Part shown: positions 246-64,000 of the stretch, one piece after another
Layout: each line of letters starts with the position of its first letter
How positions within the stretch are numbered: the stretch's first letter is position 1
Assembly: GCA_021324975.1 (NCBI GenBank)
Contig: JAJPIA010000069.1
Location: 5,020-69,019, forward strand
Source: Bacillota bacterium
Lineage (GTDB): Bacteria; Sysuimicrobiota; Sysuimicrobiia; Sysuimicrobiales; Segetimicrobiaceae
Direction of reading: 5' to 3'
Length of the DNA stretch: 64,000 nt
The notes under the pieces: model-generated
What the model was told of the DNA's origin: nothing
What the model saw: only the letters and a program-made list of their open reading frames with translations
The model's database searches: none
Program-made: the position numbers and the translations under genes

Positions 246-935
246 CTACATAAACTTGCTCGGGAACTGCTTCGCGATGGCACCGGCCAGCGCATCAGAA
301 ATCGCGTAGATGTTCTTGAGCATCGAGTCCCAGGTCTGCGCTTCCTGCCCGAGATTCCCAGCCGCCACCGCGTTGCACTCCGCAATATGCTCGGCCACGT
401 GCGCGCCCAGCAGGGACAGCACGGCCGTCTTCGGCAGATTTGGGTTGGCCGAACTCAGCAGGGTCGCAAGCTGCTCCCCGTTTTGCGTCATCTTTTTGGC
501 CGCCGCGCTCTTGGCGGCCTCATCACCCCGGATGTCGGCCAGGCAGTACTCCTGCACCGCGTTCACGTGATCGGTGAAGAGCCGGGCGAAGGCGGTGCCC
601 GCCGGCTGCCCGTAGAAGGATGCCACCGCCGCACCGAACGCGTTAGCGTTCTGAATGGCCATTCGGTAGGCAACTTGGGCTTCGTCGGGATTGCCGGCTT
701 TCGTGGCGATGACCATGGAGCGGACCCAAAACACATGGTCGACAAAGAGGTGCCGGAGCGTCATGTCAAGGTTATCAACCTTCCCTGGGTTCACCCCGGT
801 CTGCGCGTAGCTGGTGACCGGCGTAACGGGCCATGCGCACAGCGCCATCCCAATCAGCAGTGCCGAGACAACCCACACTCTTCGCATCATCAGCGCACCT
901 CCCGGAATCGTCACGGTGCAGGTTAGTATGTCCAT
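246..935 (-). CDS. Secreted hypothetical protein (N-terminal signal peptide MMRRVWVVSALLIGMALCAWPV; real start may be the internal MM at ~893)
   Basis: ORF with hydrophobic signal-like N-terminus followed by Ala/Gln-rich mature part; plus-strand ORF 15..926 is its Arg-rich antisense shadow. Confidence 0.5.
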   Translation of the reverse strand: MDILTCTVTIPGGALMMRRVWVVSALLIGMALCAWPVTPVTSYAQTGVNPGKVDNLDMTLRHLFVDHVFWVRSMVIATKAGNPDEAQVAYRMAIQNANAFGAAVASFYGQPAGTAFARLFTDHVNAVQEYCLADIRGDEAAKSAAAKKMTQNGEQLATLLSSANPNLPKTAVLSLLGAHVAEHIAECNAVAAGNLGQEAQTWDSMLKNIYAISDALAGAIAKQFPSKFM

Positions 936-1172
936 CTGCGCACGCCTGCCTGCGCTTCAACGGTGTTGACTGTACCATCTGCCATGACTTGGATCGTTGC
1001 GCTACCTCAACCATCGTCGCCCCCGGTCGTATGGGGGATGAGGGCCGCAGACCGCGCCCGGTCGGCAGGCGGCAATGCGCCAGCGCAACGACTCGCGGAT
1101 ACGGCACCCTCTTCACTAGAACGTGAGAGACGTCGGGGTGCGTCAATCGGGTGATTCAAAACTGGAACGATG

Positions 1173-1202
1173 CTGGAGGTGACAGTACTGGAGGTGACAG
1201 TA
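1173..1202 (+). repeat. Perfect tandem direct repeat 2 x 15 bp (ctggaggtgacagta) immediately upstream of ATG at 1206; each copy contains GGAGGTGA
   Basis: Read directly in sequence: 1173-1187 and 1188-1202 identical. Confidence 0.85.
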
Positions 1203-1205
1203 CGT

Positions 1206-1406
1206 ATGGCCCCCATCACGCGCGTGACCAGCGTCGCGGACGCGCTCGGGAGTTCCATGGTCGCGCGGAAGCTCTTCCTCGAACATGGCATCAACCCCGA
1301 GTGGTTCGGTGAAATGACGAAATTCAACACCTTAGGCGATGCGGAACGGTGGTGCGACGTGAAGGACATTGACCGCCTCATCGATGACCTCCGTGCATTG
1401 CCTTGA
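1206..1406 (+). CDS. Small hypothetical protein (66 aa)
   Basis: ATG at 1206 with GGAGGTG 8 nt upstream; in frame with longer ORF 1170..1406; stop 18 nt before next gene. Confidence 0.4.
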   Translation: MAPITRVTSVADALGSSMVARKLFLEHGINPEWFGEMTKFNTLGDAERWCDVKDIDRLIDDLRALP

Positions 1407-1422
1407 GAGAGGAGGAGAGAAT

Positions 1423-2244
1423 ATGAATGAACATGCGTTCGACTTCGTCCGCACCAATGACCGTGAACGCAAGCCGCGGTCGCGAGGAATCACCGAGATC
1501 CGCGGGCCGTACTATACGCCGATGGGCCGCCACTATCTCGATGATCTCCTCGAGACTATGGGCGATTACATCGACAGCCTAAAGTTTGCCGGAGGCTCGT
1601 TTGTGCTCATGCCCGACGCCGCTCTGCGCGGGGTGATCGAGTTGGCCCATCGTCATCACGTCCTCGTCTCCACCGGAGGGTTCATCGAGCGCATCCTCAG
1701 CCAGGGGCCGCAGGCGGTCGACCGATACGTGCGCACGTGCAGAGACCTCGGCTTCGATATCATCGAGATTTCGAGCGGATTCATCACGATCCCACCCGAT
1801 GACTGGCTGCGTCTCGTGCAGCAGGTGCAAGCTGCCGGCCTGAAGGCCAAACCCGAGATCGGCATCCAGTTTGGCGCTGGGGGTGCGAGCACAGTTGAGG
1901 CCCTTGAGGCGGAGGGCACGCGCGATGTGGGCTGGGCCGTTCACCAGGCCAAACGGTTTCTCGACGCTGGAGCCTATCTGATCATGGTCGAATCCGAAGG
2001 CATCACCGAGCAGGTCAAGGTGTGGCGCACCGACGCGGCGGCCCGCATCATCGAGGCGCTGGGGCTCGACAAGGTCATGTTCGAGGCGGCCGATCCCAGT
2101 GTGTTCGCCTGGTACGTGAAGAACTACGGGCCCGAGGTCAACTTGTTCGTGGACCACAGCCAAATCGTTCAGCTCGAGTGTCTCCGATCCGGACTGTGGG
2201 GAACGCAGGATCTTTGGGGCCGTGTTTTGACGTACAAAGGGTAG
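1423..2244 (+). CDS. (2R)-phospho-3-sulfolactate synthase (ComA) family protein
   Basis: ATG at 1423 preceded by GAGGAGGAG; ComA-like motifs (RSRGITEIRGPYYTPMG ... DYIDSLKFAGGSF), TIM-barrel-like length ~273 aa. Confidence 0.65.
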   Translation: MNEHAFDFVRTNDRERKPRSRGITEIRGPYYTPMGRHYLDDLLETMGDYIDSLKFAGGSFVLMPDAALRGVIELAHRHHVLVSTGGFIERILSQGPQAVDRYVRTCRDLGFDIIEISSGFITIPPDDWLRLVQQVQAAGLKAKPEIGIQFGAGGASTVEALEAEGTRDVGWAVHQAKRFLDAGAYLIMVESEGITEQVKVWRTDAAARIIEALGLDKVMFEAADPSVFAWYVKNYGPEVNLFVDHSQIVQLECLRSGLWGTQDLWGRVLTYKG

Positions 2245-2261
2245 AGCGCTGTCCAGCCCTA

Positions 2262-2606
2262 TTACGTCGCGATCTTGTCCTGCATCACGTCACTCGCTCG
2301 CACGAACGCCAGTGCGACCTCCCATCGCTGCGCGCACATCATCGCTTGGTGCACCAGTATTGGGCCACCAAGAGTCCGTCGCGGCGCGTCCTCCACTTCA
2401 AGGTGACGCCGGACGGCGGTGGTTAGCATATGCTTCGATTCCTGCGACAGCGCGTACCGGTGCTCACCGTCGCCGCCGACGCCCCGGCTGGCATCGTGGC
2501 GCAATCCATCCGCGACGGACTCGACGGCGATCTCCGCCGCTAGGATGGCGGGCAATTCGAGTCTACACCCGATGCCTCGGCAACGGGGAGGCTGATACCA
2601 TGCCAT
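2262..2606 (-). CDS. Hypothetical protein (weak call in a degenerate, lower-GC region)
   Basis: ORF only; no recognisable motif. Confidence 0.2.
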   Translation of the reverse strand: MAWYQPPRCRGIGCRLELPAILAAEIAVESVADGLRHDASRGVGGDGEHRYALSQESKHMLTTAVRRHLEVEDAPRRTLGGPILVHQAMMCAQRWEVALAFVRASDVMQDKIAT

Positions 2607-2995
2607 CTAGACGTATCGACCGGAGGTGCAAGATCGCTGAGTCGGGTGCGGAGAGCCGTCGTTCGCGGGAGATCCGGTCTTCAACGGCACGAACGTGAAG
2701 CTGGTCAAGGTAGTGGACCTGGCGATGGCGGACGGCACGCAGGTGCTGGGGTGCTTCTGACGGGAGCGGCCTGAGGCACGACACTGCCGAGAAGATCCTG
2801 CGAACGATCGACACGGATGCTCGGCGTAGCAAGCGGTAGGGGCACGTCTGCACCCCTTGGTGGCATGACGCCGCAGCGCGTGGTCGCGGGAACGCGACGG
2901 GTGTGCGTGGGCTTGCCACACATGCGCCGATGCATCCGGCATTCGAGTGGGAGGGCGGCCGGATCATTACGGGCCCGCGCTGCGTGCCGCGAAAT

Positions 2996-3031
2996 GTGAA
3001 ACCAGCGGGGCAAGCCCCCCGCCGGTTTCAC
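2996..3031. other. GC-rich imperfect inverted repeat / stem-loop (GTGAAACC-a-GCGGGG ... CCCCGC-c-GGTTTCAC)
   Basis: Seen in sequence; ~14 bp stem with one A-C mismatch; no T-tract on either strand. Confidence 0.4.
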
Positions 3032-3056
3032 TATGCCGCGCTCTGGGGTGCCGTGG

Positions 3057-3269
3057 TCAGGCCAGCTCGATGTCCTGCGCGTGCACCATCAGCCCCATGT
3101 GTTGATTCGCGCGGCCCGGGACGAGGACGACGACCGCCCCGTAACGCGAATCGAGCTGGTGCACTTGTACGGGTTCCGTCATGCCGGCGACCTTGACCTT
3201 GCTCCCGACACTGACGGCTCGTCCGTTGCGGTCCTTCACCTCTTGCGACACCGTGACCGGCACTGCCAT
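3057..3269 (-). CDS. Small hypothetical protein (~70 aa; beta-rich, possibly DUF1918-like)
   Basis: Internal Met of ORF 3057..3464; sequence MAVPVTVSQEVKDRNGRAVSVGSKVKVAG... Confidence 0.35.
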   Translation of the reverse strand: MAVPVTVSQEVKDRNGRAVSVGSKVKVAGMTEPVQVHQLDSRYGAVVVLVPGRANQHMGLMVHAQDIELA

Positions 3270-3300
3270 CGCTGCTCCCCCTTCTCCCGCCCTGGGCCTG

Positions 3301-3510
3301 TCAGCGTTCTTCCTCCTGTTCCCGATCGAGCTCCTCGATGCGCGCGCGCCACCGTTCGTCGAGAAGGCGCTCGGCACGCTCTCGCGTTTCCGCGGACACG
3401 ACCAGCCGTGCTTCCCCGCCGGGATCGTCGCAGCTGGCCGTCCAGCGGCCGGTGGCCGCGTCAAGCCGCACGTCCGCGCCTGTCATGGCCATCCGGCTCT
3501 CGTCGCGCAT
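3301..3510 (-). CDS. Small hypothetical protein (69 aa), co-oriented just upstream of 3057..3269
   Basis: ORF; charged C-terminus (ERLLDERWRARIEELDREQEEER). Confidence 0.3.
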   Translation of the reverse strand: MRDESRMAMTGADVRLDAATGRWTASCDDPGGEARLVVSAETRERAERLLDERWRARIEELDREQEEER

Positions 3511-3606
3511 CGTGAGCCTCCCGGGACCGGTGCGGGGATCTTTCCATGAGGGCCTGCGGTCAACCCTCCTCCCTGCGGTCGCTCGCCGGCGCTGCCGCTC
3601 CCGGAT

Positions 3607-4554
3607 CTACGGGCCGGCGTAGTTCGGGCTCTCGTCGTTCTTGAGCGCGTCCCAACACGTCCGGCAGAGCCATCCGATGTGATGACCGGCCGCGGCCTTG
3701 CCGGGTGTGCCGTCCGGCATCAGCCATGGCACCCGGCCGGTATAGACGGTGAGGACGAACAGCGGCCGTCCGGCTTCGAACACGATCCCGGCGTCGTTGA
3801 AGTTGCGGCTGGATGTGCCGGTCTTGTGCGCGACCGTGGTGCCGACGGGCAGCAGCAGCGGGAGCCGTTGCTGAAACTGCTGCCAGCTCAGGATGTCCAG
3901 CGCCAGCCGGCACAATGCCTGACTGCACCCCAGCCGCGCCGCGGCGGCGCCGTCGGCTGCGCCGAGCGCGATGCGCTCCAGCAGGGCGCCCACGTCGGAG
4001 GGCGTCGTCACGTTGACGCGGTCGAGATCCGGCTCGACCTCCTGCCGGGCGTCGGCCGCCGCATCGTACCGCGGAGGGACCGGCTGGCGGTGGGCCGTAC
4101 CGCGCATCCCCACGGACCGGCAAAGCTCGTTGACCGCGTCGAGCCCGACCAACTCGACGACGGCGCTCGTGCACGTATTGTCGCTGACGATGATCATCAT
4201 GACGAGCACGTCGCGGAGCGGCAGGGTGAAGCCGGGCAGGAAATAGCGAAAGCACCCGCTCGTGTTTGCCTGGTGTCTGGCCTCCAAGGTAACGGGCTGC
4301 TCGAGACACAGCCGCCCCGCGTGCACGGCCCGCAGCGCCGTCATGAGGATCGCAATCTTCCGCGTGCTCGCGGACGGGACCACGACATCGCCCGCCCGGT
4401 TCGCGCTCTCACCGCGGACGAGATCCTTGAGATACCAGCCCGTGTCGAACGGCTGTGCATCACACCGAGCGTTCAGCCGCGCCGCGAGCGCATCCAACAT
4501 CGGCGACACCACCGCGTCAAGGCCATGACGGCCTCGTGTGATCTCCTGTGACAT
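3607..4554 (-). CDS. Class A beta-lactamase-fold serine hydrolase, no signal peptide (predicted cytoplasmic)
   Basis: Motifs S-x-x-K (SASTRK), SDN (VSDNTCTS), KTG (HKTGTS); start ATG at 4552-4554 (residue 270 of ORF 3607..5361; upstream part is Arg-rich junk). Confidence 0.7.
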   Translation of the reverse strand: MSQEITRGRHGLDAVVSPMLDALAARLNARCDAQPFDTGWYLKDLVRGESANRAGDVVVPSASTRKIAILMTALRAVHAGRLCLEQPVTLEARHQANTSGCFRYFLPGFTLPLRDVLVMMIIVSDNTCTSAVVELVGLDAVNELCRSVGMRGTAHRQPVPPRYDAAADARQEVEPDLDRVNVTTPSDVGALLERIALGAADGAAAARLGCSQALCRLALDILSWQQFQQRLPLLLPVGTTVAHKTGTSSRNFNDAGIVFEAGRPLFVLTVYTGRVPWLMPDGTPGKAAAGHHIGWLCRTCWDALKNDESPNYAGP

Positions 4555-4716
4555 TACCGGCACGGCGCCGGGAGTCCTCCGCGGCGGCGGAAATCCAAAT
4601 TCTCGCCACGCGCAGCATCCGGCCGGTCGCGAGGCATCCCGTGACGGCGACAAGACAATCCCAAGACAAACCGGGGGCGAGGTCGCCGAACACCCTGAAA
4701 TGCCGGGCCTTGGGCA

Positions 4717-4792
4717 TGGGGTGGCCGACGGGACTTGAACCCGCAACCCCCAGAGCCACAGTCTGGTGCTCTGCCCTTGAGCTACGGCCACC
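4717..4792 (-). tRNA. tRNA-His (anticodon GTG) with encoded G-1 and encoded CCA
   Basis: Manual fold: G-1 + acceptor GTGGCCG/CGGCCAC, D-arm GCTC/GAGC, anticodon stem CCAGA/TCTGG with loop CTGTGGC, T-arm GCGGG-TTCAAGT-CCCGT, discriminator C, CCA. Confidence 0.9.
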
Positions 4793-4901
4793 GCGTGCAT
4801 AGAACACCTTACCGGAGAGGCACCGGGCGTGCAAGTGGACCCGCCGGCGTTCCGCCGAACCGCGGCGGCGTTGCGGGCCCGTGGGCGGCGGCAGGCAGCG
4901 G

Positions 4902-55584: not shown

Positions 55585-56418
55585 CTAGAAGAACTCGATC
55601 ATGCCTGACCCGAGATGCCACTCGCCCATGAGCCTGGCGTACGTCCCATCGGCCTTGAGCGTGTAGAGCGCGGCCGTCAGCGGGCCGGTGAGCGCGGCGT
55701 TCCTCGGCGACACGGCCAGGCCGTTAAACGTCGGGTTCTTTCCGCCAAAAGCCAGCTCGATGCGGCCGCCGCCTTTTTGGCTCACGTAGTAGGTAACGAT
55801 CGGCTCGTCGCCCATCACGACGTCGGCGCGGCCGTCGATGAGCTGCGTGAACGCGTCGGCAACCGTGGAGAACGTCTTGAGATCGATCGGCGGCTTGCCG
55901 TGCGCGACGCAGTCCTGACTCTGTGCGCGGATGACCCGCTCGTACACGGACCCGAGCAGCTCGGCCGCGTGCAGCCCGCACGTGTCGGGAAGATCATGGA
56001 CGCCGCGGGGGTTGCCCTTGGCGACGGCGGCACCCTGCGCGGTCCGCCGATACGGCACGAAGTCCACCGCCTCCGCGCGCTGCGGCGTGATCAGCATGGA
56101 GCTGCACACCACGTCGAACCGGCCCGCATTGAGCGCGGGGATCAAGCCCGAGAACTGTAGGTTGGTCCACTCGACTCGAAGGCCCAGCCGCCGGCCGATC
56201 TCGTTGCACAGGGCAAAATCGACGCCCGCCATGTTGTGACTGGCGTCGAGAAACGTGCCCGGCGGTTGCGTGAAGTCAGCGCCAAATCGGATGACGCCCG
56301 CCTTTCGTACCGCGTCCGGCACCGGGATGGCGTTTGGCGGCGCCTGGGCGCCGGCGCCGGTTGCAAACGCGAGCCATCCGATGAGCACAGCGGCACAGAC
56401 CGCATGTGGGTTGCGCAT
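55585..56418 (-). CDS. Polar amino-acid ABC transporter substrate-binding protein
   Basis: Signal peptide, SBP_bac_3-like; strong SD GAGAGGAGAGAG before ATG 56418. Confidence 0.8.
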   Translation of the reverse strand: MRNPHAVCAAVLIGWLAFATGAGAQAPPNAIPVPDAVRKAGVIRFGADFTQPPGTFLDASHNMAGVDFALCNEIGRRLGLRVEWTNLQFSGLIPALNAGRFDVVCSSMLITPQRAEAVDFVPYRRTAQGAAVAKGNPRGVHDLPDTCGLHAAELLGSVYERVIRAQSQDCVAHGKPPIDLKTFSTVADAFTQLIDGRADVVMGDEPIVTYYVSQKGGGRIELAFGGKNPTFNGLAVSPRNAALTGPLTAALYTLKADGTYARLMGEWHLGSGMIEFF

Positions 56419-56453
56419 CGCTCTCTCCTCTCTGTTTGCGGTCACCTCTCGGC

Positions 56454-57350
56454 TCATGCGCGCGTTGCGTGCATGCTCCCGCGCTCGGACCGGACGAGCC
56501 GGCGATAGGCCGCGAGCAGGTCGGCGGTCACGGGTCCCGGCGTTCCCGCCCCGATTACCCGGCCGTCGATTTCGACGACCGCCACCAACTCCTGCACCGT
56601 CCCGGTCGTGAAGACCTCGTCCGCGGAGTACACGTCGAACAGCGACACCTGGCGCTCCCATACTTCACGGCCGCCCGCCCGGGCCAGTTCGATCGTCGCG
56701 CGTCGAGTAATACCGTGCAGGCACGCCGTCGACCATGGCGTTGCGAGTACGCCGTCGCGGACGATGAAGACATTGGAGGAGTCCGTCTCGGCGACGAAGC
56801 CTGCGCGGTCCAGCATGAGCGCGCCGTCTACCCCGGCGCGGTTGGCTTCCAGCTTCGCCAGGATGCTGTTGAGCTGATTTGCGCTGTGAATCCCGGGGTC
56901 CAAGACGTCGGGCTCGGGCCGCCGGATCCCCACGGTGCGCAGGCGGATGCCGGGCGGACTCTGTGGCACCGGCTTGAGTTCCGGGATCATCACGATCGTG
57001 GCTCGGCCGGTGACGTTCCGGGGATTCATCCCGGAGGTGAGCCGCTCCCCGCGGGTCACCATCAGGCGGATGTGCACACCGTCCCGAAATCCGTTCGCGT
57101 CAAGTGTGGCATACACGACATCCGAGAGAGCCGCCCGGGTCAGGGGGATCGTGATCTCGACGGCTTTCGCGGATCGCCAGAGGCGATCGAGATGCTCGTC
57201 GAGCCTAAAGACGACGCCGTCGTAGACCCGCAGTCCTTCCCACACCGCATCGCCTGATTGGAACGACGCGTCAAAAACAGAGACGCGGGCATCCGATCGG
57301 GGAACGATCCTTCCATCCACGTAGATGTGGAGTTCTCGCGTTGACCCCAC
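56454..57350 (-). CDS. Class IV aminotransferase (branched-chain amino acid / D-amino acid aminotransferase family)
   Basis: Fold-type IV features; GTG start with AGAGGAG SD. Confidence 0.8.
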   Translation of the reverse strand: MGSTRELHIYVDGRIVPRSDARVSVFDASFQSGDAVWEGLRVYDGVVFRLDEHLDRLWRSAKAVEITIPLTRAALSDVVYATLDANGFRDGVHIRLMVTRGERLTSGMNPRNVTGRATIVMIPELKPVPQSPPGIRLRTVGIRRPEPDVLDPGIHSANQLNSILAKLEANRAGVDGALMLDRAGFVAETDSSNVFIVRDGVLATPWSTACLHGITRRATIELARAGGREVWERQVSLFDVYSADEVFTTGTVQELVAVVEIDGRVIGAGTPGPVTADLLAAYRRLVRSERGSMHATRA

Positions 57351-57452
57351 GCAGCGCTCCTCTTTTGAAATCGTATACCGTATACGATATTATATGAAAT
57401 AATATCGGGGCGCCCGACGCCGCGTCAAGCGCGCGGCCCGCGCGCAACATCT

Positions 57453-58208
57453 ATGGGCAAATCAGCAGAGACCGGAGTGAACAGGCCACGGGCAGCGCTT
57501 GCCGGCTACCGGACCAAGACGCAGCTGGTCTACGAAGGATTGCGCGAGGCGATTCGCGCCGGCCATTATCCGCCGGGCAGCCGTCTCGTGGCCGACCAGA
57601 TCGCCAGCACCCACGGCACGAGCAAGGTCCCGGTGCGCGAGGCGATCGTGCGACTTGCGGGAGAGGGGTGGCTCGAGATCCAGCCGCACGTGGGGGCGGT
57701 TGTGGCCAGGCTGTCCCCGGAAGAGGTACTGGAGACCGCCATCGTGCGGGCGGCCCTCGAGTCGAGAGCGGTCAGGCTTGCTACCGAGCGGTTGACAGCG
57801 CGTGACTTGTCACGGTTACGGGCGCTGCTGGTTCGCATGGACGCGGCCGCCACCCGGGCGTCCGGTCGCTATCCGGACCTCAACTTCCAATTCCACTCGG
57901 CGATCTTTTTGCGCTGCCCGTATCCGTTGCTCCGACAGCTCACCGCGTCCATGGCAGAGCGAAGTCTCAAGCTGCGGACCGTGCGCTTCCTGCCCGCATA
58001 CCTGCCGGAAACGCAGCGGGAACACTGGGCGCTATTTCGGGCGCTCGAGCGGCGCGATGCCGACGCCGCGGAACGTATCACCCGAGACCATATCGAGCAC
58101 GCGGGGCGGCTGCTATGGCAGTTCGCGGTCGCGCAGGCGAAACATGTTCCACCCGCCCGGGGACAGCGCCCGCGACCACTCAAGCACGCGGCGGCTGATG
58201 AAGGTTGA
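57453..58208 (+). CDS. GntR-family transcriptional regulator (FadR/FCD subfamily)
   Basis: N-terminal wHTH (QIASTHGTSKVPVREAIVRLAGEGWL) and FCD C-domain. Confidence 0.85.
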   Translation: MGKSAETGVNRPRAALAGYRTKTQLVYEGLREAIRAGHYPPGSRLVADQIASTHGTSKVPVREAIVRLAGEGWLEIQPHVGAVVARLSPEEVLETAIVRAALESRAVRLATERLTARDLSRLRALLVRMDAAATRASGRYPDLNFQFHSAIFLRCPYPLLRQLTASMAERSLKLRTVRFLPAYLPETQREHWALFRALERRDADAAERITRDHIEHAGRLLWQFAVAQAKHVPPARGQRPRPLKHAAADEG

Positions 58209-59097
58209 GCGGCTCGGCGCGGGCCCCATCATCACTCCGCAGACGGACGCGAGCATCGGCCCTAACATCAACGGGCCGTCTCTGATCCGCGTACCGGCTT
58301 GGGTTCACGGCCCGCTTGGCCGATATTACTTGTACTTCGCGGCGCATCGCGGCATGTTCATCCGGCTGGCGTACAGCGACGCGATTGCAGGCCCTTGGAG
58401 GGTCTACAGCCCGGGCACCCTCCGCTTGCCGGAGTCGATGTTTGTGGATCACATCGCCTCCCCGGACGTTCACGTCGATCAAGATGCCCAAGAGATCCTG
58501 ATGTACTACCACGGTCAGTGTGAAGACGGAACACAGGCCACGCGCCTGGCGGTGTCCAGGGATGGCCTCCACTTCCGCCCGATGCCGGAGAGGCTGGGAC
58601 CGTGGTACTTTCGGGTGTTCGGCTGGAACGGATTGCGGTATGCGTTGACGATGCCCGGCACGCTGTACTGGTCGCGTACAGGACGCGCACCCTTCGAACG
58701 AGGGCCGTCGATTCTCCCCCCGGACACAAGACACACAGCCGTTTGGCTCGACGGCGTCGTGCTTTACATCGTGTTCTCGCGCGTAGGCGACTGCCCGGAG
58801 CGGTTGCTCCTCAGTGCCGTTCGCTTGGAACCGGACTGGCGCAGATGGCGGGCGTCCTCGCCTCCCCAGATTCTGCTGGAACCCGATACCGCCGCCGAGG
58901 GCCGAGACTTGCTCCTCCGCCCTTCGGAACGCGGAGAAGCCGTAGAACGACTTCGGGAATTGCGTGATCCCGCCGTTTTTGAGGATGATGGCGGCCGCTA
59001 TCTCCTGTACAGCGTGGCCGGGGAATCCGGCATCGCTATCGCGCGGCTCGCCCCGGACGATCCTCTCATGCCGGCGTCACCGGGCGGAGTCGCCTGA
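58198..59097 (+). CDS. Hypothetical beta-propeller protein, possibly glycoside hydrolase-like (GH43/GH130/DUF377-like)
   Basis: ATG 58198 overlapping the GntR stop; no catalytic motif verified. Confidence 0.4.
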   Translation: MKVERLGAGPIITPQTDASIGPNINGPSLIRVPAWVHGPLGRYYLYFAAHRGMFIRLAYSDAIAGPWRVYSPGTLRLPESMFVDHIASPDVHVDQDAQEILMYYHGQCEDGTQATRLAVSRDGLHFRPMPERLGPWYFRVFGWNGLRYALTMPGTLYWSRTGRAPFERGPSILPPDTRHTAVWLDGVVLYIVFSRVGDCPERLLLSAVRLEPDWRRWRASSPPQILLEPDTAAEGRDLLLRPSERGEAVERLRELRDPAVFEDDGGRYLLYSVAGESGIAIARLAPDDPLMPASPGGVA

Positions 59098-59182
59098 TTC
59101 GCTGGGCTGCCTTTGCAGCCCGCGCTGGGCTCTCCGGCAATCAGTTGTGGCCGAGGATCGGGCGCGGCCGGGCCACCTCCAA

Positions 59183-59758
59183 TCAGGGCGCGCCCCGCAT
59201 GTGGTAATCGAGCAGCGATGCGGCAGCTTCGTAGCGCCAGATCGGTATCTCCCGTCGCTCCCAGGGGGAGCCAACGATCCGTTCAAGCGATGTGCCGCTG
59301 CACCAGTACTCAAGGCCGTATCGTGTCGCGCGGTGTCCGATGATCACGAGCGTCTTCCCGCCCCAACTCCGCAGGGCGTCGCGCAGAACGTCACCCACGC
59401 GCTCAACGGCGGCGGTCAGGCTTTCACCGCCTGGAAATGGCTCGGCGAGATGACCGAGCAGCCGGGCATGCACCTCAGCGCTAGGATACTGCGCCAGGAT
59501 GCCATAATCACACTCGCGCAGTCGAGCATCCCGGATTATCGGCACGTCGCGACTAGAGAAAGCGAGTTCAGCGGTTCTGGATGCGCGCTGAAGGTCCGAG
59601 CAGAAGACGGCATCGATCGCGCAATGTGCATAATGCCGTGCCAATTCGCCGGCTTCGAGCAGACCACGTTCCGACAGTGGAACGTCGGCGTGCCCGGATG
59701 CCCGCCCCAATTCGTTGTCAAGGCTAGTCATATGTGGCGAGTAGTAAACGGTCGTCAC
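59183..59758 (-). CDS. Histidine phosphatase (phosphoglycerate mutase-like) family protein
   Basis: Histidine-phosphatase fold; no secretion signal. Confidence 0.7.
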   Translation of the reverse strand: MTTVYYSPHMTSLDNELGRASGHADVPLSERGLLEAGELARHYAHCAIDAVFCSDLQRASRTAELAFSSRDVPIIRDARLRECDYGILAQYPSAEVHARLLGHLAEPFPGGESLTAAVERVGDVLRDALRSWGGKTLVIIGHRATRYGLEYWCSGTSLERIVGSPWERREIPIWRYEAAASLLDYHMRGAP

Positions 59759-60006
59759 GCGTTACTCCCGATGGGGCGCGTGACGTGTGGAGAGACCCTG
59801 AACCCAGTGGACAGGGCGCCACGCGAGGTACCCGGCGTTGTACACGATGAGCGCTGCTAACCCGAGCAGCAACGATGATGGTCAGGTGCCGCACATCCCT
59901 CGATCTTTCAACATCTTCCAGGTGAGTGGTTGTTTGAACATGGCATCTCCTCCGGTCGCGAATATTGCTACCTTTTGCTCCGGCCACCGCCGCTCGCTCC
60001 TGCCCG

Positions 60007-60702
60007 TTACTTGACCGAGATCGTTGCCCCCGTCGGGGGCTGAACCGTCGCGCTCTGTGCCGTCGGCGAGATGATCAAGTAGTCCCACATGCCGGCCTGC
60101 GCGTGCCCCAGGGCGCCGCACAGAAATTCGTACTTGCCGGCCGTCGCGGCCACAAACGACACGGTTTCTTCCTGCCCAGGTCCGATGCCATCGACGGCAT
60201 CCTTCGTTGATGCCCCGGGAAAGGCCGGATCCGGAGCCTTGTCGGGTTGCGTGCCCGCGAACGGCGCCACATCGAGACTGTGCCGTAGATTCCCGTCGTT
60301 GCGGTAGTGGATCAGCAATTTCCATCCTACCGGCACGGTGATCGTCAGCGCGCCCTTCCCGTAGCCGTTGAAGTTGAATCCACCGTTTGCTTCGGTCTTG
60401 CTCGCTACCAGCGTCAACTCCGCGGTCTTTTGAACCGCCGGCCGGCCATGTGTCGGACCGGCCACGATCGCCAAGGCAACCAGCAGCCCACCGATCGCTG
60501 TGCGTCGGGACCGCCAGGCGAACCGTCCGGGCCGGACCGCGCTCCTCCGCACCGCGTCCGAAGATCGTGCCGGCGTGTGCGTGCGCCGACCCGTTTCCCC
60601 GGAACCCCCGCCGCCATCGGCCGCCCCGGGGTGGTGAAGGGGGACGTTGCCAGTCCCGAGGCGGCCGTTGCTCGGCGGCTCGACCACTAGCCAACGGTCC
60701 AT
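60007..60702 (-). CDS. Type-1 (blue) copper cupredoxin-domain protein, secreted/membrane-anchored
   Basis: C-terminal ligand set FLCGALGHAQAGMW (Cys-x3-His-x4-Met) with upstream His; N-terminal hydrophobic anchor; start uncertain. Confidence 0.6.
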   Translation of the reverse strand: MDRWLVVEPPSNGRLGTGNVPLHHPGAADGGGGSGETGRRTHTPARSSDAVRRSAVRPGRFAWRSRRTAIGGLLVALAIVAGPTHGRPAVQKTAELTLVASKTEANGGFNFNGYGKGALTITVPVGWKLLIHYRNDGNLRHSLDVAPFAGTQPDKAPDPAFPGASTKDAVDGIGPGQEETVSFVAATAGKYEFLCGALGHAQAGMWDYLIISPTAQSATVQPPTGATISVK

Positions 60703-60711
60703 GCGGACGTG

Positions 60712-61539
60712 TTACCGCACATTCACCGTGACCTGGTCGGCCACTTCCGGCATCAACGGCTCATGGAGCGTATCGACCAGGAACGCGTAGAATGTATGCT
60801 TGCCCTTGCTCATGCCTTCCGTCGAGACGTTCACGTAATTCGTGCAGCTCATGTTCAGCATCGTCGCCATGCCCATCATCGGACCTTTCATCGTGTCGAC
60901 GTTCACGTGCCAGTGCCCGGCGTTCGCCACCTTCGGCTTGCCGTAGAGGTCACATGACAGGAGGAAGTTGTTCGCCGTAATTACGAGCGGGAACCCGCCG
61001 TGGACCGTGGCGCCGCTCTTCGGGTAGATGATATGAATGCTGGGCTTGCCCGGCGGCCCCGACTGGATCCACGGCATCGCCGCAACCGGTTCATAGTCGA
61101 TCTTGACGGATGTTTTCGCCTTCTCGACTTCGGCGTGGTCATTCTCCGCCGGCACCACCGCAATCGTGTGGGTCCCGGGCTTCACGTTCTGCATGCTGAC
61201 TTCGGCCGGACCGCAGAACATGTTGACCAGGGCGCCGTCGATATAGACGTGGTAATGACCGGTCCCGGGCGTCACAGCCGTGCCGGCGAGATTGCAATTG
61301 AGTTTCCAATTGGTGAATTCCGGCACGACATCCACAACGGGCTGGTTGACGAGTTGCCCGTCGGTCGGCAGCAGGATCTTCGTCGTAACACTCTCCTGCG
61401 GCATCTGCATCTGCGCGGATACGCCGCTTTCGCCCAGGAGTGCCAACCCTAGCACCAGGACCGTCGCGGAAGCCGCCCACAACCCGCGGCCCATGCGACG
61501 GGACACCCTGAATCCATGCCTTGGAGGATCCTGGTCCAT
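60712..61539 (-). CDS. Secreted protein with two tandem domains each carrying a G-H-x-H-V-x-[IV]-D motif (possible metal-binding; DUF4399-like, uncertain)
   Basis: Signal peptide; internal duplication (GHYHVYIDG / GHWHVNVD). Confidence 0.5.
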   Translation of the reverse strand: MDQDPPRHGFRVSRRMGRGLWAASATVLVLGLALLGESGVSAQMQMPQESVTTKILLPTDGQLVNQPVVDVVPEFTNWKLNCNLAGTAVTPGTGHYHVYIDGALVNMFCGPAEVSMQNVKPGTHTIAVVPAENDHAEVEKAKTSVKIDYEPVAAMPWIQSGPPGKPSIHIIYPKSGATVHGGFPLVITANNFLLSCDLYGKPKVANAGHWHVNVDTMKGPMMGMATMLNMSCTNYVNVSTEGMSKGKHTFYAFLVDTLHEPLMPEVADQVTVNVR

Positions 61540-61599
61540 GCGCCACCCCCTTTGTCATACTCCAACCGCACCATACCAGGAGATTGATGCGTTCGTTCG

Positions 61600-62109
61600 C
61601 TACTCACGGCTGAGCGCAACGGACCGCCGTGGGCGGCGATTGCGATCGCGGCCTGCCAAGTCGACCCTATCCGAGACCACCGCGCACGGCATCGCAATGG
61701 CGCGGAGGGCCTGCCACGTCCCCGCGGTAAGCCCCAGCCCGGCGCCGATCACGGGGATCCAGAACCAGCGGTGAATCGCGGCATTGACACCGAGCAACGT
61801 GACCCCGGAGACGCCGAGCAGCGATAGCGCGGCAGGCCAGAGCAGCGGTGTGCAGCACGAAGCCCCGAGGAACGCAAACACGACCCCGGTCGCGGTTATA
61901 CCTGCTCCCGATCGCCCAAGCCGCAGTCGGAGCGCACTGGTATGCACGACCCCGGCGACCCCGGCCAGGAGCGCCGTGCCGGCGAAAATCGCGACCTTGG
62001 CCGGCGTCGCCAGCAGCACGACTCCGCCGCCCTGGCCGGTCGCCAGCATCTGGCCGCTCATGGCAAACAACCATCCGGCGATGAGCGCGACCGCGGCGCC
62101 CGAAATCAT
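61600..62109 (-). CDS. MerT-like membrane protein with vicinal Cys pair (LGASCCTPLL)
   Basis: Several TM helices; CC motif in a TM segment as in MerT; start set at internal Met to avoid overlap. Confidence 0.4.
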   Translation of the reverse strand: MISGAAVALIAGWLFAMSGQMLATGQGGGVVLLATPAKVAIFAGTALLAGVAGVVHTSALRLRLGRSGAGITATGVVFAFLGASCCTPLLWPAALSLLGVSGVTLLGVNAAIHRWFWIPVIGAGLGLTAGTWQALRAIAMPCAVVSDRVDLAGRDRNRRPRRSVALSRE

Positions 62110-62147
62110 GGCCCATCGATCGCTAAACGCAAGCGCGAGCGCGGCTT

Positions 62148-62864
62148 TCAATGGAATTGGGCCTCCATGGTCCGCACGGCTGGCGTCCCGCATGCCGTCG
62201 CCGGCGTGTCCTTATCGGCAAAACAGATGAGCGCCGTCACGATGTCCGCCTCGTGCCGGATCGCCGCCCCGTCGGGCGCGCCTGCCGCGAGGTCGCTCCG
62301 CACCTGGTCGAAACTCTTGTGTACCAGGAGGCCGGGTGAATATCCGGAACCGTGTTCCGCGAATGCTCCGGCAATCAACAGGAACGGTATCCCCCCGTCG
62401 GGATCGAAACGGTTGACGAGCGCCGCCTCGTTTGGCGCCAAGGGTTGCAGCGGACGACCCTGCGCGTCCTGAACATCGCGTGCCGTGAACGCCACCCACC
62501 GGCTCGTGTAGCGGGCGTGGACGAAATTATAGGTGGGGATCGCGGAAAAGCCCTCAACCCCGCTCGTGCTCTCAGCCGGCGCGAGGCTGGACCAAGTCCC
62601 AAAGCGACCGAGCGCATCGACCAGAGCCCAACGCTCCGCCGCGCAGAACGGGCAATACAGGGCGCTGAGAAGAAACACGGTCACGGGCCGGCCGGGTGTC
62701 ACGCTTGGCTGGGCCACGCGCGTGAAATTGCCGATCGCCCCTGCGGCCTCTCCCGGGACGAGCGGCACACCCGGTCCCGCGAGCAGACAGATGCCGAGGG
62801 CGAATCCTGCCATCGCCGCGATCCACCTCGGCACGGCGAAGCTTCTGCGTTCGCTCGTCATCAT
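62148..62864 (-). CDS. Thioredoxin-like protein with CPFC motif (DUF929-like, uncertain), membrane-anchored/secreted
   Basis: N-terminal hydrophobic segment; SALYCPFCAAERW. Confidence 0.5.
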   Translation of the reverse strand: MMTSERRSFAVPRWIAAMAGFALGICLLAGPGVPLVPGEAAGAIGNFTRVAQPSVTPGRPVTVFLLSALYCPFCAAERWALVDALGRFGTWSSLAPAESTSGVEGFSAIPTYNFVHARYTSRWVAFTARDVQDAQGRPLQPLAPNEAALVNRFDPDGGIPFLLIAGAFAEHGSGYSPGLLVHKSFDQVRSDLAAGAPDGAAIRHEADIVTALICFADKDTPATACGTPAVRTMEAQFH

Positions 62865-62904
62865 TACCTCCTAAGAACCAAGAGAGGAACAACACCCACG
62901 GCAC

Positions 62905-63726
62905 TCACGGGCGCCCGGCGATACCGTGGCGGTAAACAGAGACACCAGGGACACCACCTCCCCGCTCGGCACCGTCATTCTCAGGCACGGGCACGCGCGT
63001 ATCGCTCCGCGCGTCCTGGACGCCGGGCTGCCCGGCGGGCATTTTGTACCCCACCCCTCGTACGGTCTGAATATATTGCGGATGGACCGGGTCGTCGGCG
63101 AGCTTCTCGCGGAGTTTGCCGATGTGTGCATCAATTGTCCGTTCCTCAACCTCGGCTTCTGTGAACGGGTGCACGTGCGCGAGGAGTTGTTCGCGCGTGA
63201 AGACCTGTCCCGGGGACTCCAGGAACGCCTGCAGGAGCTTGAACTCCATGGCCGTGAGAGGTAGCGGCCGTCCGTCGATCGAGACCTCATGACGATCAAC
63301 TCGCATAAGGAGAGTACCGTGCTCGAGCACTGGGCCGTCGCGTTGCGGCGTCGTTCGGCGCAGGATCGCCCGCATGCGTGCAATGAGTTCCCGCGGGCTA
63401 AACGGCTTCGTGAGGTAGCCGTCGGCACCCGCTGACAACCCCCGCAGCCGGTCTTCTTCCTCAACCTTGGCGGAGAGCATCAAGATCGGGACGCGGGAGC
63501 GCTCGCGTAGGATGCGGCACACCGTCAGACCATCCATGCGCGGCAGCATGACATCGAGAATGATGAATCCAGGATGGTACTGCGCCACCAGGTCGAGCGC
63601 GTGCACCCCGTCGTCGGCGGTCACGACGCGGAACCCGTCCCGTACCAAGTAGATCCGGAGTAGCGCGGTGAGCTTCCGGTCGTCGTCGACGACGAGAACC
63701 ACGATCGGGTCTGAGGTTAGACTCAT
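62905..63726 (-). CDS. OmpR-family response regulator (REC + winged-helix) with ~45-aa C-terminal extension
   Basis: REC motifs (VVDDD, ILDVMLPRMDG, LSAK) and trans_reg_C (TVRGVGYK); ATG 63726. Confidence 0.8.
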   Translation of the reverse strand: MSLTSDPIVVLVVDDDRKLTALLRIYLVRDGFRVVTADDGVHALDLVAQYHPGFIILDVMLPRMDGLTVCRILRERSRVPILMLSAKVEEEDRLRGLSAGADGYLTKPFSPRELIARMRAILRRTTPQRDGPVLEHGTLLMRVDRHEVSIDGRPLPLTAMEFKLLQAFLESPGQVFTREQLLAHVHPFTEAEVEERTIDAHIGKLREKLADDPVHPQYIQTVRGVGYKMPAGQPGVQDARSDTRVPVPENDGAERGGGVPGVSVYRHGIAGRP

Positions 63727-64000
63727 CGATGAGAGGCCGGGGGTGGTGAGCCGCTCTGAAGGGCGCTGAGCGACGCCAAGGTGGAATTGAAGAGCGCGAA
63801 CAACCATCCCAAAATCACGATCAGCCCGCCCACGGCGAACGTCCCCGGGGGCATCACGATCCCGTAGGCGCCGTCGACCGAGATCGCCCCGGGGCCACCG
63901 GCGACGGCCACCGACGCAGCGACAGCCAGGTTGATCATGGGGAGTTCGAATCCGCCGGTGGCCGTCCACACCTTCGGCCAGTGGACCTTCGCGATCGCTG
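63723..64000 (-). CDS. DoxX-family membrane protein, partial (N-terminus beyond window end)
   Basis: C-terminal TM-rich fragment; stop overlaps response-regulator start. Confidence 0.45.
   Translation of the reverse strand, partial: AIAKVHWPKVWTATGGFELPMINLAVAASVAVAGGPGAISVDGAYGIVMPPGTFAVGGLIVILGWLFALFNSTLASLSALQSGSPPPASHR

Follow-up and report, generated by a model that had tools for sequence, protein, structure and literature searches.

The locus considered here is a cluster of six genes at positions 60007-64000 of a 64,000-nucleotide stretch of DNA from a Bacillota bacterium (contig JAJPIA010000069.1; the whole stretch is called the window). All six are open reading frames (ORFs) on the minus strand, separated by gaps of −4 to about 105 nt, and inspection of the ORFs of the window confirmed each of them where a previous, sequence-only reading had placed it. 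In the direction of transcription they encode a DoxX protein that runs across the window edge, a response regulator of the OmpR/PhoB family, an exported DUF929 protein with a CPFC motif, an unannotated membrane protein with a vicinal cysteine (Cys) pair, referred to as CCmem, a secreted protein with tandem DUF4399 domains, and a membrane-anchored cupredoxin. Profile searches of Pfam and NCBIfam against curated cut-offs bore out the families previously guessed for the cupredoxin and for the DUF4399, DUF929, regulator and DoxX proteins, the last by way of its full gene on the public contig L010, which shares 11,853 nt with the window at 100% identity and continues for 8.8 kb past its edge (L-numbers designate comparison loci or contigs, and P-numbers individual homologous proteins). 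Two gene pairs, DUF929 with CCmem (pair A) and tandem DUF4399 with the cupredoxin (pair B), recur as pairs on unrelated contigs, and because both of them do so the arrangement of the cluster goes beyond chance. The locus is a mosaic of these two independently conserved pairs and of accessory genes that shuffle between genomes. Of the single envelope module for copper, mercury or thiol-redox handling that had been proposed, the thiol-redox and copper themes persist, whereas mercury and the idea of one dedicated module do not.

The first gene of pair A (62148..62861, minus strand) encodes a membrane-anchored, exported, thioredoxin-fold protein of 237 aa, which matches the DUF929 family (PF06053) with an E value of 3.6e-16 and 59.9 bits against a cut-off of 24.6. 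DUF929 has been placed in the thioredoxin-like clan by remote homology (PMC3091736), and the secretome of Picrophilus includes two of its members (PMC8345856). The AlphaFold2 model of the window protein (predicted local distance difference test score, pLDDT, 87.5; predicted template modelling score, pTM, 0.80) shows a thioredoxin-like core. In Foldseek, the best matches of this model in the PDB are weak (E 0.014 or worse) and nearly all of them have the thioredoxin fold, including GST-omega, thioredoxin and DsbA. Residues C70, C73, R77, W78 and P159 are invariant among 32 homologues, and the CPFC motif, the Arg-Trp that follows it, the cis-Pro and a C-terminal Cys pair (Cys213/Cys224) are unchanged across all branches of DUF929.

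The membrane partners of DUF929 were surveyed through the neighbours of 85 of its genes from 80 metagenome loci (L053-L095 among them). VKOR or DsbB adjoins the DUF929 gene or lies within 1.8 kb of it in 35 of the 85 cases, being directly downstream in 28 of these. CCmem is directly downstream of eight genes, no partner was found for another 35, and the contig ends too soon in the case of seven. When seven of the downstream proteins were tested in Pfam, six were VKOR (1e-20 to 1e-29) and one was DsbB (8e-15). In genomic terms, this association makes DUF929 a partner of the DsbA type for VKOR or DsbB. No mention of such a link was found in the papers that name DUF929, and a study of VKOR in Streptomyces assumed another DsbA partner (PMC10433416). 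In a neighbour-joining tree of the DUF929 domain, the sequences coupled to VKOR or DsbB form one branch, whereas those coupled to CCmem, including that of the window, make up a grade in which a solitary clade is nested; the type of partner thus tracks the position in the tree. In the DUF929 branch of the window, CCmem takes the membrane slot that belongs to VKOR or DsbB in the other. In the solitary clade, a gene for a Cys-rich membrane protein of about 150 aa comes before some of the DUF929 genes (L035 2685-3131, L037 4481-4942 and L041 7323-7769); the protein carries the motifs SPCD, GSCEPGxxC and GWC, has no Pfam match and may be yet another type of membrane partner of DUF929.

DUF929 lies directly upstream of CCmem, on the same strand, in 16 of 16 distinct CCmem loci, and start and stop codons usually overlap; in the window the overlap is TTGA. 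All other neighbours of pair A differ among the 16 loci, and the pairing extends to the member of L014, at just 26% identity. The DUF929 homologue P0059 has a plastocyanin-like cupredoxin fused to its N-terminus; a CCmem member begins 2 nt downstream, and Redoxin and DsbD_2, SCO1-like and HMA genes lie near the fusion.

CCmem (61600..62151, minus strand) is a protein of 183 aa with four transmembrane (TM) helices; it begins with a TTG codon, the longest ORF reaching 62193, and it matches no family in Pfam or NCBIfam. A word-index search found only 15 relatives, none of them named. An exhaustive hidden Markov model search of 1.84 billion representative proteins gave 49 matches, and when the genomes of 185,579 species were scanned for a pattern from a narrow CCmem alignment, three matched (Chloroflexota, an unclassified bacterium and Candidatus Tumulicola). 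Metagenome-assembled genomes with CCmem include GCA_040961365.1, DATLRG01 and DASXDV01. The members are 158-218 aa long and have four helices. In members down to about 20% identity, the Cys-Cys of the third helix and Pro106, six residues after it, are invariant, and Pro102, two residues after it, is nearly so. The site reads S-C-C-x-P within a broken third helix, and a G-x-S-G motif comes after it. Exactly three Cys are conserved, namely Cys99, Cys100 and Cys156, the last of which is situated at the cytoplasmic end of TM4. This third Cys is found at +56 from the pair in 24 of 28 members and at +55 in two more (P0142 and P0150); as exceptions, P0137 is without it, P0171 has it one alignment column off, and P0155 and P0177 have it at other offsets. 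A conserved H-R-W-F aromatic patch is located at the outer face.

The orientation of CCmem in the membrane was deduced from its charged residues. The mean number of Lys and Arg residues is high in the TM2-TM3 loop (3.4) and the C-terminal tail (2.1) and low in the two outer loops (0.25 and 0.9); the topology is therefore N-in, C-in. The positive-inside count also predicts that the Cys-Cys lies halfway across the membrane, with the third Cys on its cytoplasmic side. The AlphaFold2 model (pLDDT 79.6, pTM 0.64) has its third helix broken exactly at C-C-T-P. Foldseek found no solved fold like that of the model in the PDB (best E 0.85), and sequence and profile searches of the PDB with CCmem, DUF929 and DUF4399 returned noise only. 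A candidate CxxC-bearing paralogue of CCmem, a four-helix protein of 148 aa, is encoded at L015 6474-6920 (minus strand), and another occurrence is at L016 302-1537; in the L015 protein, the third helix contains G-C-P-I-C...L-G-V-S-G and the C-terminal part CKKC, and hhalign gives 21% over the full length.

The resemblance to MerT that had been attributed to CCmem is real at the level of remote profile-profile similarity, with all three Cys aligned, but CCmem is not a member of the MerT family by Pfam or NCBIfam. Indeed, none of 15 CCmem members matches the MerT profile of Pfam (PF02411) even at E values up to 10, and NCBIfam, whose MerT model is NF010314, gave no match. Aligned by hhalign with four true MerT sequences (Tn501-type, Salmonella, Priestia and Agrobacterium, with the frameshifted Bosea merT of L103 left out), CCmem scores 61% with an E value of 8e-5, and this rises to 90% and 1.4e-6 when the MerT-like gene upstream of DUF929 in L004 is added to the four. 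The same comparison gives about 1% for reversed MerT, 1.8% for VKOR, 0.4% for DsbB, 0.4% for the DsbD_2 protein and 0% for DoxX, and 30 column-shuffled MerT alignments give at most 0.6% each. Pfam likewise has no match of CCmem to DsbB or VKOR (PF02600, PF07884) or to CcdA/DsbD (PF02683, PF13386), and no fold of the CcdA/DsbD kind was matched in the PDB. The block aligned with MerT spans about 70 columns and contains the Cys-Cys helix, the next helix and a Cys equivalent to MerT Cys76, so that Cys99/100 and Cys156 of CCmem stand against Cys24/25 and Cys76 of MerT. The C-terminal half of CCmem is remotely MerT-like, and the similarity is specific. Given the extent of the aligned block, CCmem looks like two extra N-terminal helices joined to a MerT-type hairpin with a single cytoplasmic Cys.

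Pair B begins with the tandem DUF4399 protein (60712..61494, minus strand, the longest ORF reaching 61539), which is secreted and 260 aa long. The match to DUF4399 (PF14347, 2.9e-11) falls on the C-terminal half, with 44 bits against a cut-off of 28, and the N-terminal half is recognised just as an internal repeat. The duplicated GH[YW]HV motifs that had caught attention earlier do belong to a true repeat, since GHYHV is aligned to GHWHV when the two halves are compared (BLASTP 1e-6). In each half, a Cys pair, G-H-x-H, an Asp and two more His are invariant among 23 homologues; the second half also has an invariant Met-rich MMGMATML, which is enlarged to long Met-rich loops in several homologues. 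The tandem architecture is shared by at least 160 homologues, nearly all of them unnamed or "hypothetical", and two are mislabelled L24E by the Joint Genome Institute (JGI). No solved structure matching DUF4399 was found in the PDB searches.

The second gene of pair B (60007..60702, minus strand) encodes a membrane-anchored, sulfocyanin-type cupredoxin of 231 aa, whose SoxE domain matches PF06525 at 7e-18 with 64.9 bits against a cut-off of 21. Against the NCBIfam sulfocyanin equivalog it reaches 70 bits where the cut-off is 168, and it is therefore not ranked among the orthologues of Sulfolobus SoxE. The type-1 copper ligand set is complete, His...Cys-x4-His-x4-Met (FLCGALGHAQAGMW), so the Cys-x3-His spacing given previously was wrong; the C-x4-H-x4-M loop aligns to the type-1 loops of nitrite reductases. 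A SoxE-domain cupredoxin comes directly after the tandem DUF4399 gene in L096/L097 (68% and 64% identity), L098 and L104, but not in L099, which gives three further lineages with the pair; the cupredoxin of L096 is 64% identical to that of the window. Clusters of His and Met-rich loops are typical of periplasmic copper binders, and the invariant His, Met and Cys of pair B suggest copper binding.

Upstream of pair A, the response regulator (62905..63726, minus strand, 273 aa) has Response_reg (4.5e-30) and Trans_reg_C (7.8e-26) domains, both above cut-off. The context of the phospho-acceptor Asp, ILDVMLP, and the conserved Lys in LTKPF are present, as read by eye. Its C-terminal tail is unusual, with about 40 residues past the winged helix (62905-63030, minus strand), and the whole protein has 273 aa versus 248 aa in the orthologue of L096. 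The last 91 codons of DoxX occupy 63723..64000 on the minus strand and have no Pfam match by themselves. The full gene, at L010 8609-9139, encodes 176 aa from a start equivalent to position 64253, outside the window, and matches PF07681 with an E value of 1.6e-17 and 64.3 bits against a cut-off of 23.6. The stop codon of DoxX overlaps the start of the regulator as ATGA, in agreement with the translational coupling described before.

The two-component control that had been proposed for the cluster is unproven. An OmpR-type regulator is present, but no kinase accompanies it at the window locus; in L096, a HAMP-HisKA kinase gene comes after that of a regulator with 60% identity, near a DUF4399-SoxE pair. 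The lack of a sensor kinase in the window was confirmed for the whole 64 kb by phmmer with the kinase from a related locus, and the histidine kinase expected just beyond position 64000 is not found in the 8.8 kb that L010 adds upstream. L096 further contains an orthologue of the Crp regulator (1.7e-83), DUF3179 and CopD, and its arrangement makes a regulatory link between such regulators and pair B plausible. The expression of the cluster is probably controlled by the OmpR-type regulator together with the Crp/Fnr regulator encoded further upstream.

The surroundings of the two pairs are rich in genes for redox proteins. On L010, beyond the window and on the same strand, a Crp/Fnr regulator, a SelL-related AhpC/TSA_2 redox protein and a secreted CPLC DUF3179 protein are encoded before DoxX. 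The opposite strand (323-4767) bears a split ArsP_1 permease, an EgtB-like protein (DinB_2 with FGE-sulfatase), a glycosyltransferase and an EgtD-like histidine methyltransferase; the EgtB- and EgtD-like genes are of the type for ergothioneine, a low-molecular-weight thiol, and lie beside the island. In L021, ArsR, DUF929, CCmem and DUF3179 share one strand, with the ArsR/SmtB metalloregulator directly upstream of DUF929, and the other strand has a TlpA-like-DUF3179 fusion, a tandem DUF4399 gene (5e-71 to that of the window) and Crp. L004 combines SelL-like, Thioredoxin_3, Crp, MerT-like, DUF929, CCmem and weak DoxD-like genes, the MerT-like one being directly upstream of DUF929. Tandem DUF4399 adjoins pair A in two lineages. 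Neighbours were counted on nine long contigs that carry pair A (the long contexts), of which six contain thiol or selenol redox genes and three copper genes; the redox genes near pair A comprise SelL-like, DUF3179, Redoxin with DsbD_2, Thioredoxin_3, DsbD_N and disulfide reductases that bind flavin adenine dinucleotide (FAD). The thiol-redox theme of the sequence-only reading has thus been strengthened by the coupling of DUF929 to VKOR or DsbB elsewhere and by the SelL-like, CPLC DUF3179 and DoxX genes just past the window, and its copper theme by the cupredoxin-DUF929 fusion, the conserved DUF4399-cupredoxin pair and the invariant His and Met-rich motifs of the latter.

In several accessory genes (SelL-like, DUF3179 and GRDB-like), the codon in the place of the first Cys of a CxxC motif is an in-frame TGA. 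The SelL-like genes read G-TGA-LPC (FG-TGA-LPCR) and are found at L010 6300-6920, about 2-2.6 kb beyond base 64000, and at L004 ~760-1313; gene callers have split the SelL-related gene in two at the TGA. A short hairpin with an AGUU loop, common to two genomes and with one compensatory pair, lies about 20 nt after the SelL-like TGA, and the fold downstream of this TGA, scored as a selenocysteine insertion sequence (SECIS), is not better than shuffles (z +1.4). Two DUF3179 genes with TGA-PLC (W*PLC and F*PLC) occur at L021 2402-3472 (plus strand) and 3469-4851 (minus strand), one of them being fused to an N-terminal TlpA/Redoxin-like domain with WCAAC. The GRDB-like gene with A-TGA-PVC is at L104 1747-2703, and its homologues are at L017 3446-4426. 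DUF3179 has been listed as a UxxC selenoprotein family (PMC9312934). The TGA-bearing SelL-like, DUF3179 and GRDB-like genes are probable selenoprotein genes.

At the other end of the cluster, a histidine phosphatase (His_Phos_1, 6.7e-29; window 59183-59758, minus strand) is encoded on the same strand about 250 nt downstream of the cupredoxin, and it was not seen adjoining either gene pair at other loci. A scan of 56000-64000 with Rfam gave no match, a scan for promoter consensus sequences returned 0 promoters, and terminator matches were at chance level.

Favoured here, with a probability of roughly 0.4, is the view of the locus as a mosaic island whose genes serve the redox chemistry of thiols (and selenols) and the chemistry of copper in the envelope, with pair A acting as a transmembrane thiol relay with a redox cargo. 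Pair A would be a dedicated relay between the cytoplasmic face and the CPFC site of the exported DUF929 protein. As VKOR and DsbB hold the same slot in other DUF929 operons, CCmem is taken to reset the redox state of DUF929, and because its third Cys is at the cytoplasmic side the direction from the cytoplasm to DUF929 is the most likely one; electrons would pass to Cys156 of CCmem, from there to Cys99/100 and finally to the CPFC of DUF929. Such a system would supply reducing power in the manner of CcdA/DsbD or ScsB/ScsC, rather than being a quinone-linked oxidase. Pair B would join a copper-binding protein, the tandem DUF4399, to a blue copper electron carrier, and the Cys pairs of DUF4399 and the Cys ligand of the cupredoxin are plausible clients of pair A. 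Redox equivalents are favoured over Cu(I) as the cargo of pair A for three reasons: DUF929 has the same active site as in the VKOR/DsbB-coupled branch, redox genes pervade the context, and the third Cys is cytoplasmic.

A number of considerations weigh against this interpretation. We know of no experimental work on DUF929, CCmem or DUF4399. A vicinal Cys-Cys within a helix and followed by Pro is a classic signature of thiophilic-metal proteins (MerT, MerF and MerC, and compare the CPC of P1B ATPases); disulfide relays are not known to bear it, and a disulfide between vicinal Cys is strained. CCmem is without similarity to DsbB, VKOR or CcdA/DsbD and without a second Cys pair or a recognisable quinone site, and its sole homology signal points to a metal transporter. 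In L015, where Redoxin and DsbD_2 are already present, a second route for reductant would be redundant, and three of the nine long contexts (L007, L013 and L028) have neither redox nor copper genes. Most of the related loci are probably of related lineages (those named are Chloroflexota and Eremiobacterota metagenome-assembled genomes), so that some sharing of neighbourhoods may be inherited synteny. In addition, no shared regulatory DNA motif was found upstream of the DUF4399 genes of four loci, and both co-transcription of the cluster and its control by the OmpR-type protein are unproven.

The same facts can be arranged around a metal cargo, and this is the closest competitor, possible and yet on balance unlikely. 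Pair A would then be a thiophilic-metal relay in the style of MerP and MerT, most plausibly for Cu(I), which would move between the CPFC of DUF929, the Cys-Cys of CCmem and the cytoplasmic Cys and would load or clear the cupredoxin and DUF4399. MerT is indeed the only detectable relative of CCmem, with all three functional Cys aligned, and Cys-Cys-x-Pro in a broken helix is generally known as typical of soft-metal sites. The cupredoxin-DUF929 fusion with its SCO1-like and HMA neighbours, the sulfocyanin-type cupredoxin and His/Met-rich DUF4399 directly downstream of pair A in the window, ArsR/SmtB (L021) or a second MerT-like gene (L004) directly upstream of DUF929, and CopD beside the orthologous regulator and DUF4399-SoxE cluster of L096 all agree with it, as does the rarity of the CCmem family, which is expected for an accessory stress function. 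On the other hand, the active-site invariants of DUF929 are identical in the branch coupled to VKOR and DsbB, which are purely thiol-disulfide enzymes; copper genes accompany pair A in just three of the nine long contexts, with no copper ATPase, CopZ or CsoR/CueR nearby; and inward transport of Cu(I) has no obvious purpose, whereas outward transport by a MerT-like protein is without precedent. Mercury as the cargo, in a mer-like module for uptake or detoxification, draws on the same likeness to MerT and on the analogy of the periplasmic CxxC partner with MerP, but it is highly improbable. No MerA, MerP, MerR or MerB is encoded within about 10 kb on either side of the cluster (window and L010), and the nine long contexts contain no mer operon. 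Two FAD disulfide reductases that occur close to pair A (L010 and L017) were considered as MerA and rejected, as they are without the C-terminal Cys-Cys of MerA and fall below the MerA cut-off. The mercury handling proposed earlier is accordingly abandoned.

If the cargo is redox equivalents, they could also flow the other way. CCmem would in that case be a non-homologous analogue of DsbB or VKOR that reoxidises DUF929 for disulfide formation, for example in the four-Cys DUF4399, and hands the electrons on either to the blue copper protein or, perhaps through DoxX, to quinone. The shared gene slot speaks for such an oxidase, as do the DoxX/DoxD-like, quinone-associated membrane proteins that adjoin pair A in the window lineage and in L004/L011, the H-R-W-F patch at the outer face, the conserved Cys pairs of DUF4399, which would need oxidation, and the cupredoxin fusion, which could supply an electron acceptor. 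It is nevertheless improbable: the third Cys is strictly conserved and lies on the side of the reducing cytoplasm, where an oxidase has no need of it, the single outward-accessible Cys pair is vicinal, similarity to DsbB and VKOR is lacking, and an oxidase of general use should be far commoner than 49 representatives. The six genes might, finally, have no common function at all and be neighbours by lineage-specific synteny, only the two gene pairs being functional units. Pair A and pair B are each found without the other, the regulators vary between loci (OmpR-type, Crp, ArsR, TetR), and most comparison loci are probably of related soil lineages. This is unlikely, although less so than the oxidase, because Crp, DUF3179, SelL-like, tandem DUF4399 genes and the regulator orthologue recur around either pair, in varied order and orientation, in at least four lineages; the cupredoxin-DUF929 fusion joins both themes physically; and the gaps across all six genes of the window are just −4 to 105 nt.

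The new elements that emerge are the association of DUF929 with VKOR or DsbB, an unannotated family of MerT-like partners that replaces these proteins, and the conserved DUF4399-cupredoxin pair. DUF929 and DUF4399 are large families without an assigned function, and CCmem is in no family library. As VKOR or DsbB is near about 40% of the sampled DUF929 genes, a concrete and testable role as DsbA-type oxidoreductase can be proposed for DUF929. It may tentatively be suggested that CCmem represents an unrecognised class of transmembrane thiol relay, third beside DsbB/VKOR and DsbD/CcdA, in which a MerT-like hairpin controls how far DUF929 is reduced (or how much Cu(I) it carries); DUF929 would then be a widespread and overlooked counterpart of DsbA for VKOR and DsbB among Actinobacteria and their relatives. 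If so, a MerT-like Cys-Cys protein that replaces VKOR or DsbB would be a new membrane part of envelope thiol-redox systems, or a new hand-off route of copper to blue copper proteins, and would link the mechanisms of metal transporters and disulfide relays, which are usually handled apart.

Compared with known systems, pair A shares with MerT/MerP a membrane protein that has a vicinal Cys-Cys in a TM helix and a Cys at the cytoplasmic side, encoded beside an exported CxxC protein. However, MerT has three helices and about 116 aa, whereas CCmem has four, with two extra at the N-terminus and without the third helix of MerT; MerT has a second cytoplasmic Cys (Cys82), whereas CCmem has just one that is conserved; MerP has the HMA fold, whereas the exported partner of CCmem has the thioredoxin fold; and the mer operon contains merP, merA and merR, none of which was found within about 10 kb on either side in L010 or in the eight other long contexts. 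Pair B can be set beside the sulfocyanin (SoxE) of Sulfolobales, as its cupredoxin passes the Pfam threshold for SoxE and has the full type-1 ligand set, although it stays under the NCBIfam equivalog cut-off and has no terminal oxidase genes adjacent; the tandem DUF4399 protein, with its His clusters and Met-rich loops, is like the CopC/PcoC-type periplasmic binders of Cu(II)/Cu(I). Pair A resembles DsbA with DsbB/VKOR in that the gene for an exported thioredoxin-fold CxxC protein comes directly before that of its membrane partner, and the other branch of DUF929 is itself coupled to VKOR or DsbB. DsbB and VKOR have two extracytoplasmic Cys pairs, whereas CCmem has three Cys, one of them cytoplasmic, and no evident quinone site. 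CcdA and DsbD have a six-helix core of two inverted repeats, each with one Cys, whereas CCmem has four helices and a vicinal pair. Nonetheless, in CcdA/DsbD with ResA/TlpA and in ScsB/ScsC, as in pair A, an intramembrane Cys that can be reached from the cytoplasm feeds an exported thioredoxin-fold protein, although for CCmem this operation is predicted. The CcdA/TlpA and Scs systems are moreover tied, like the island, to copper proteins and copper stress: TlpA reduces Sco and the CuA cupredoxin domain ahead of metallation, and the Scs system protects against copper and is under the control of CpxR, a regulator of the OmpR family.

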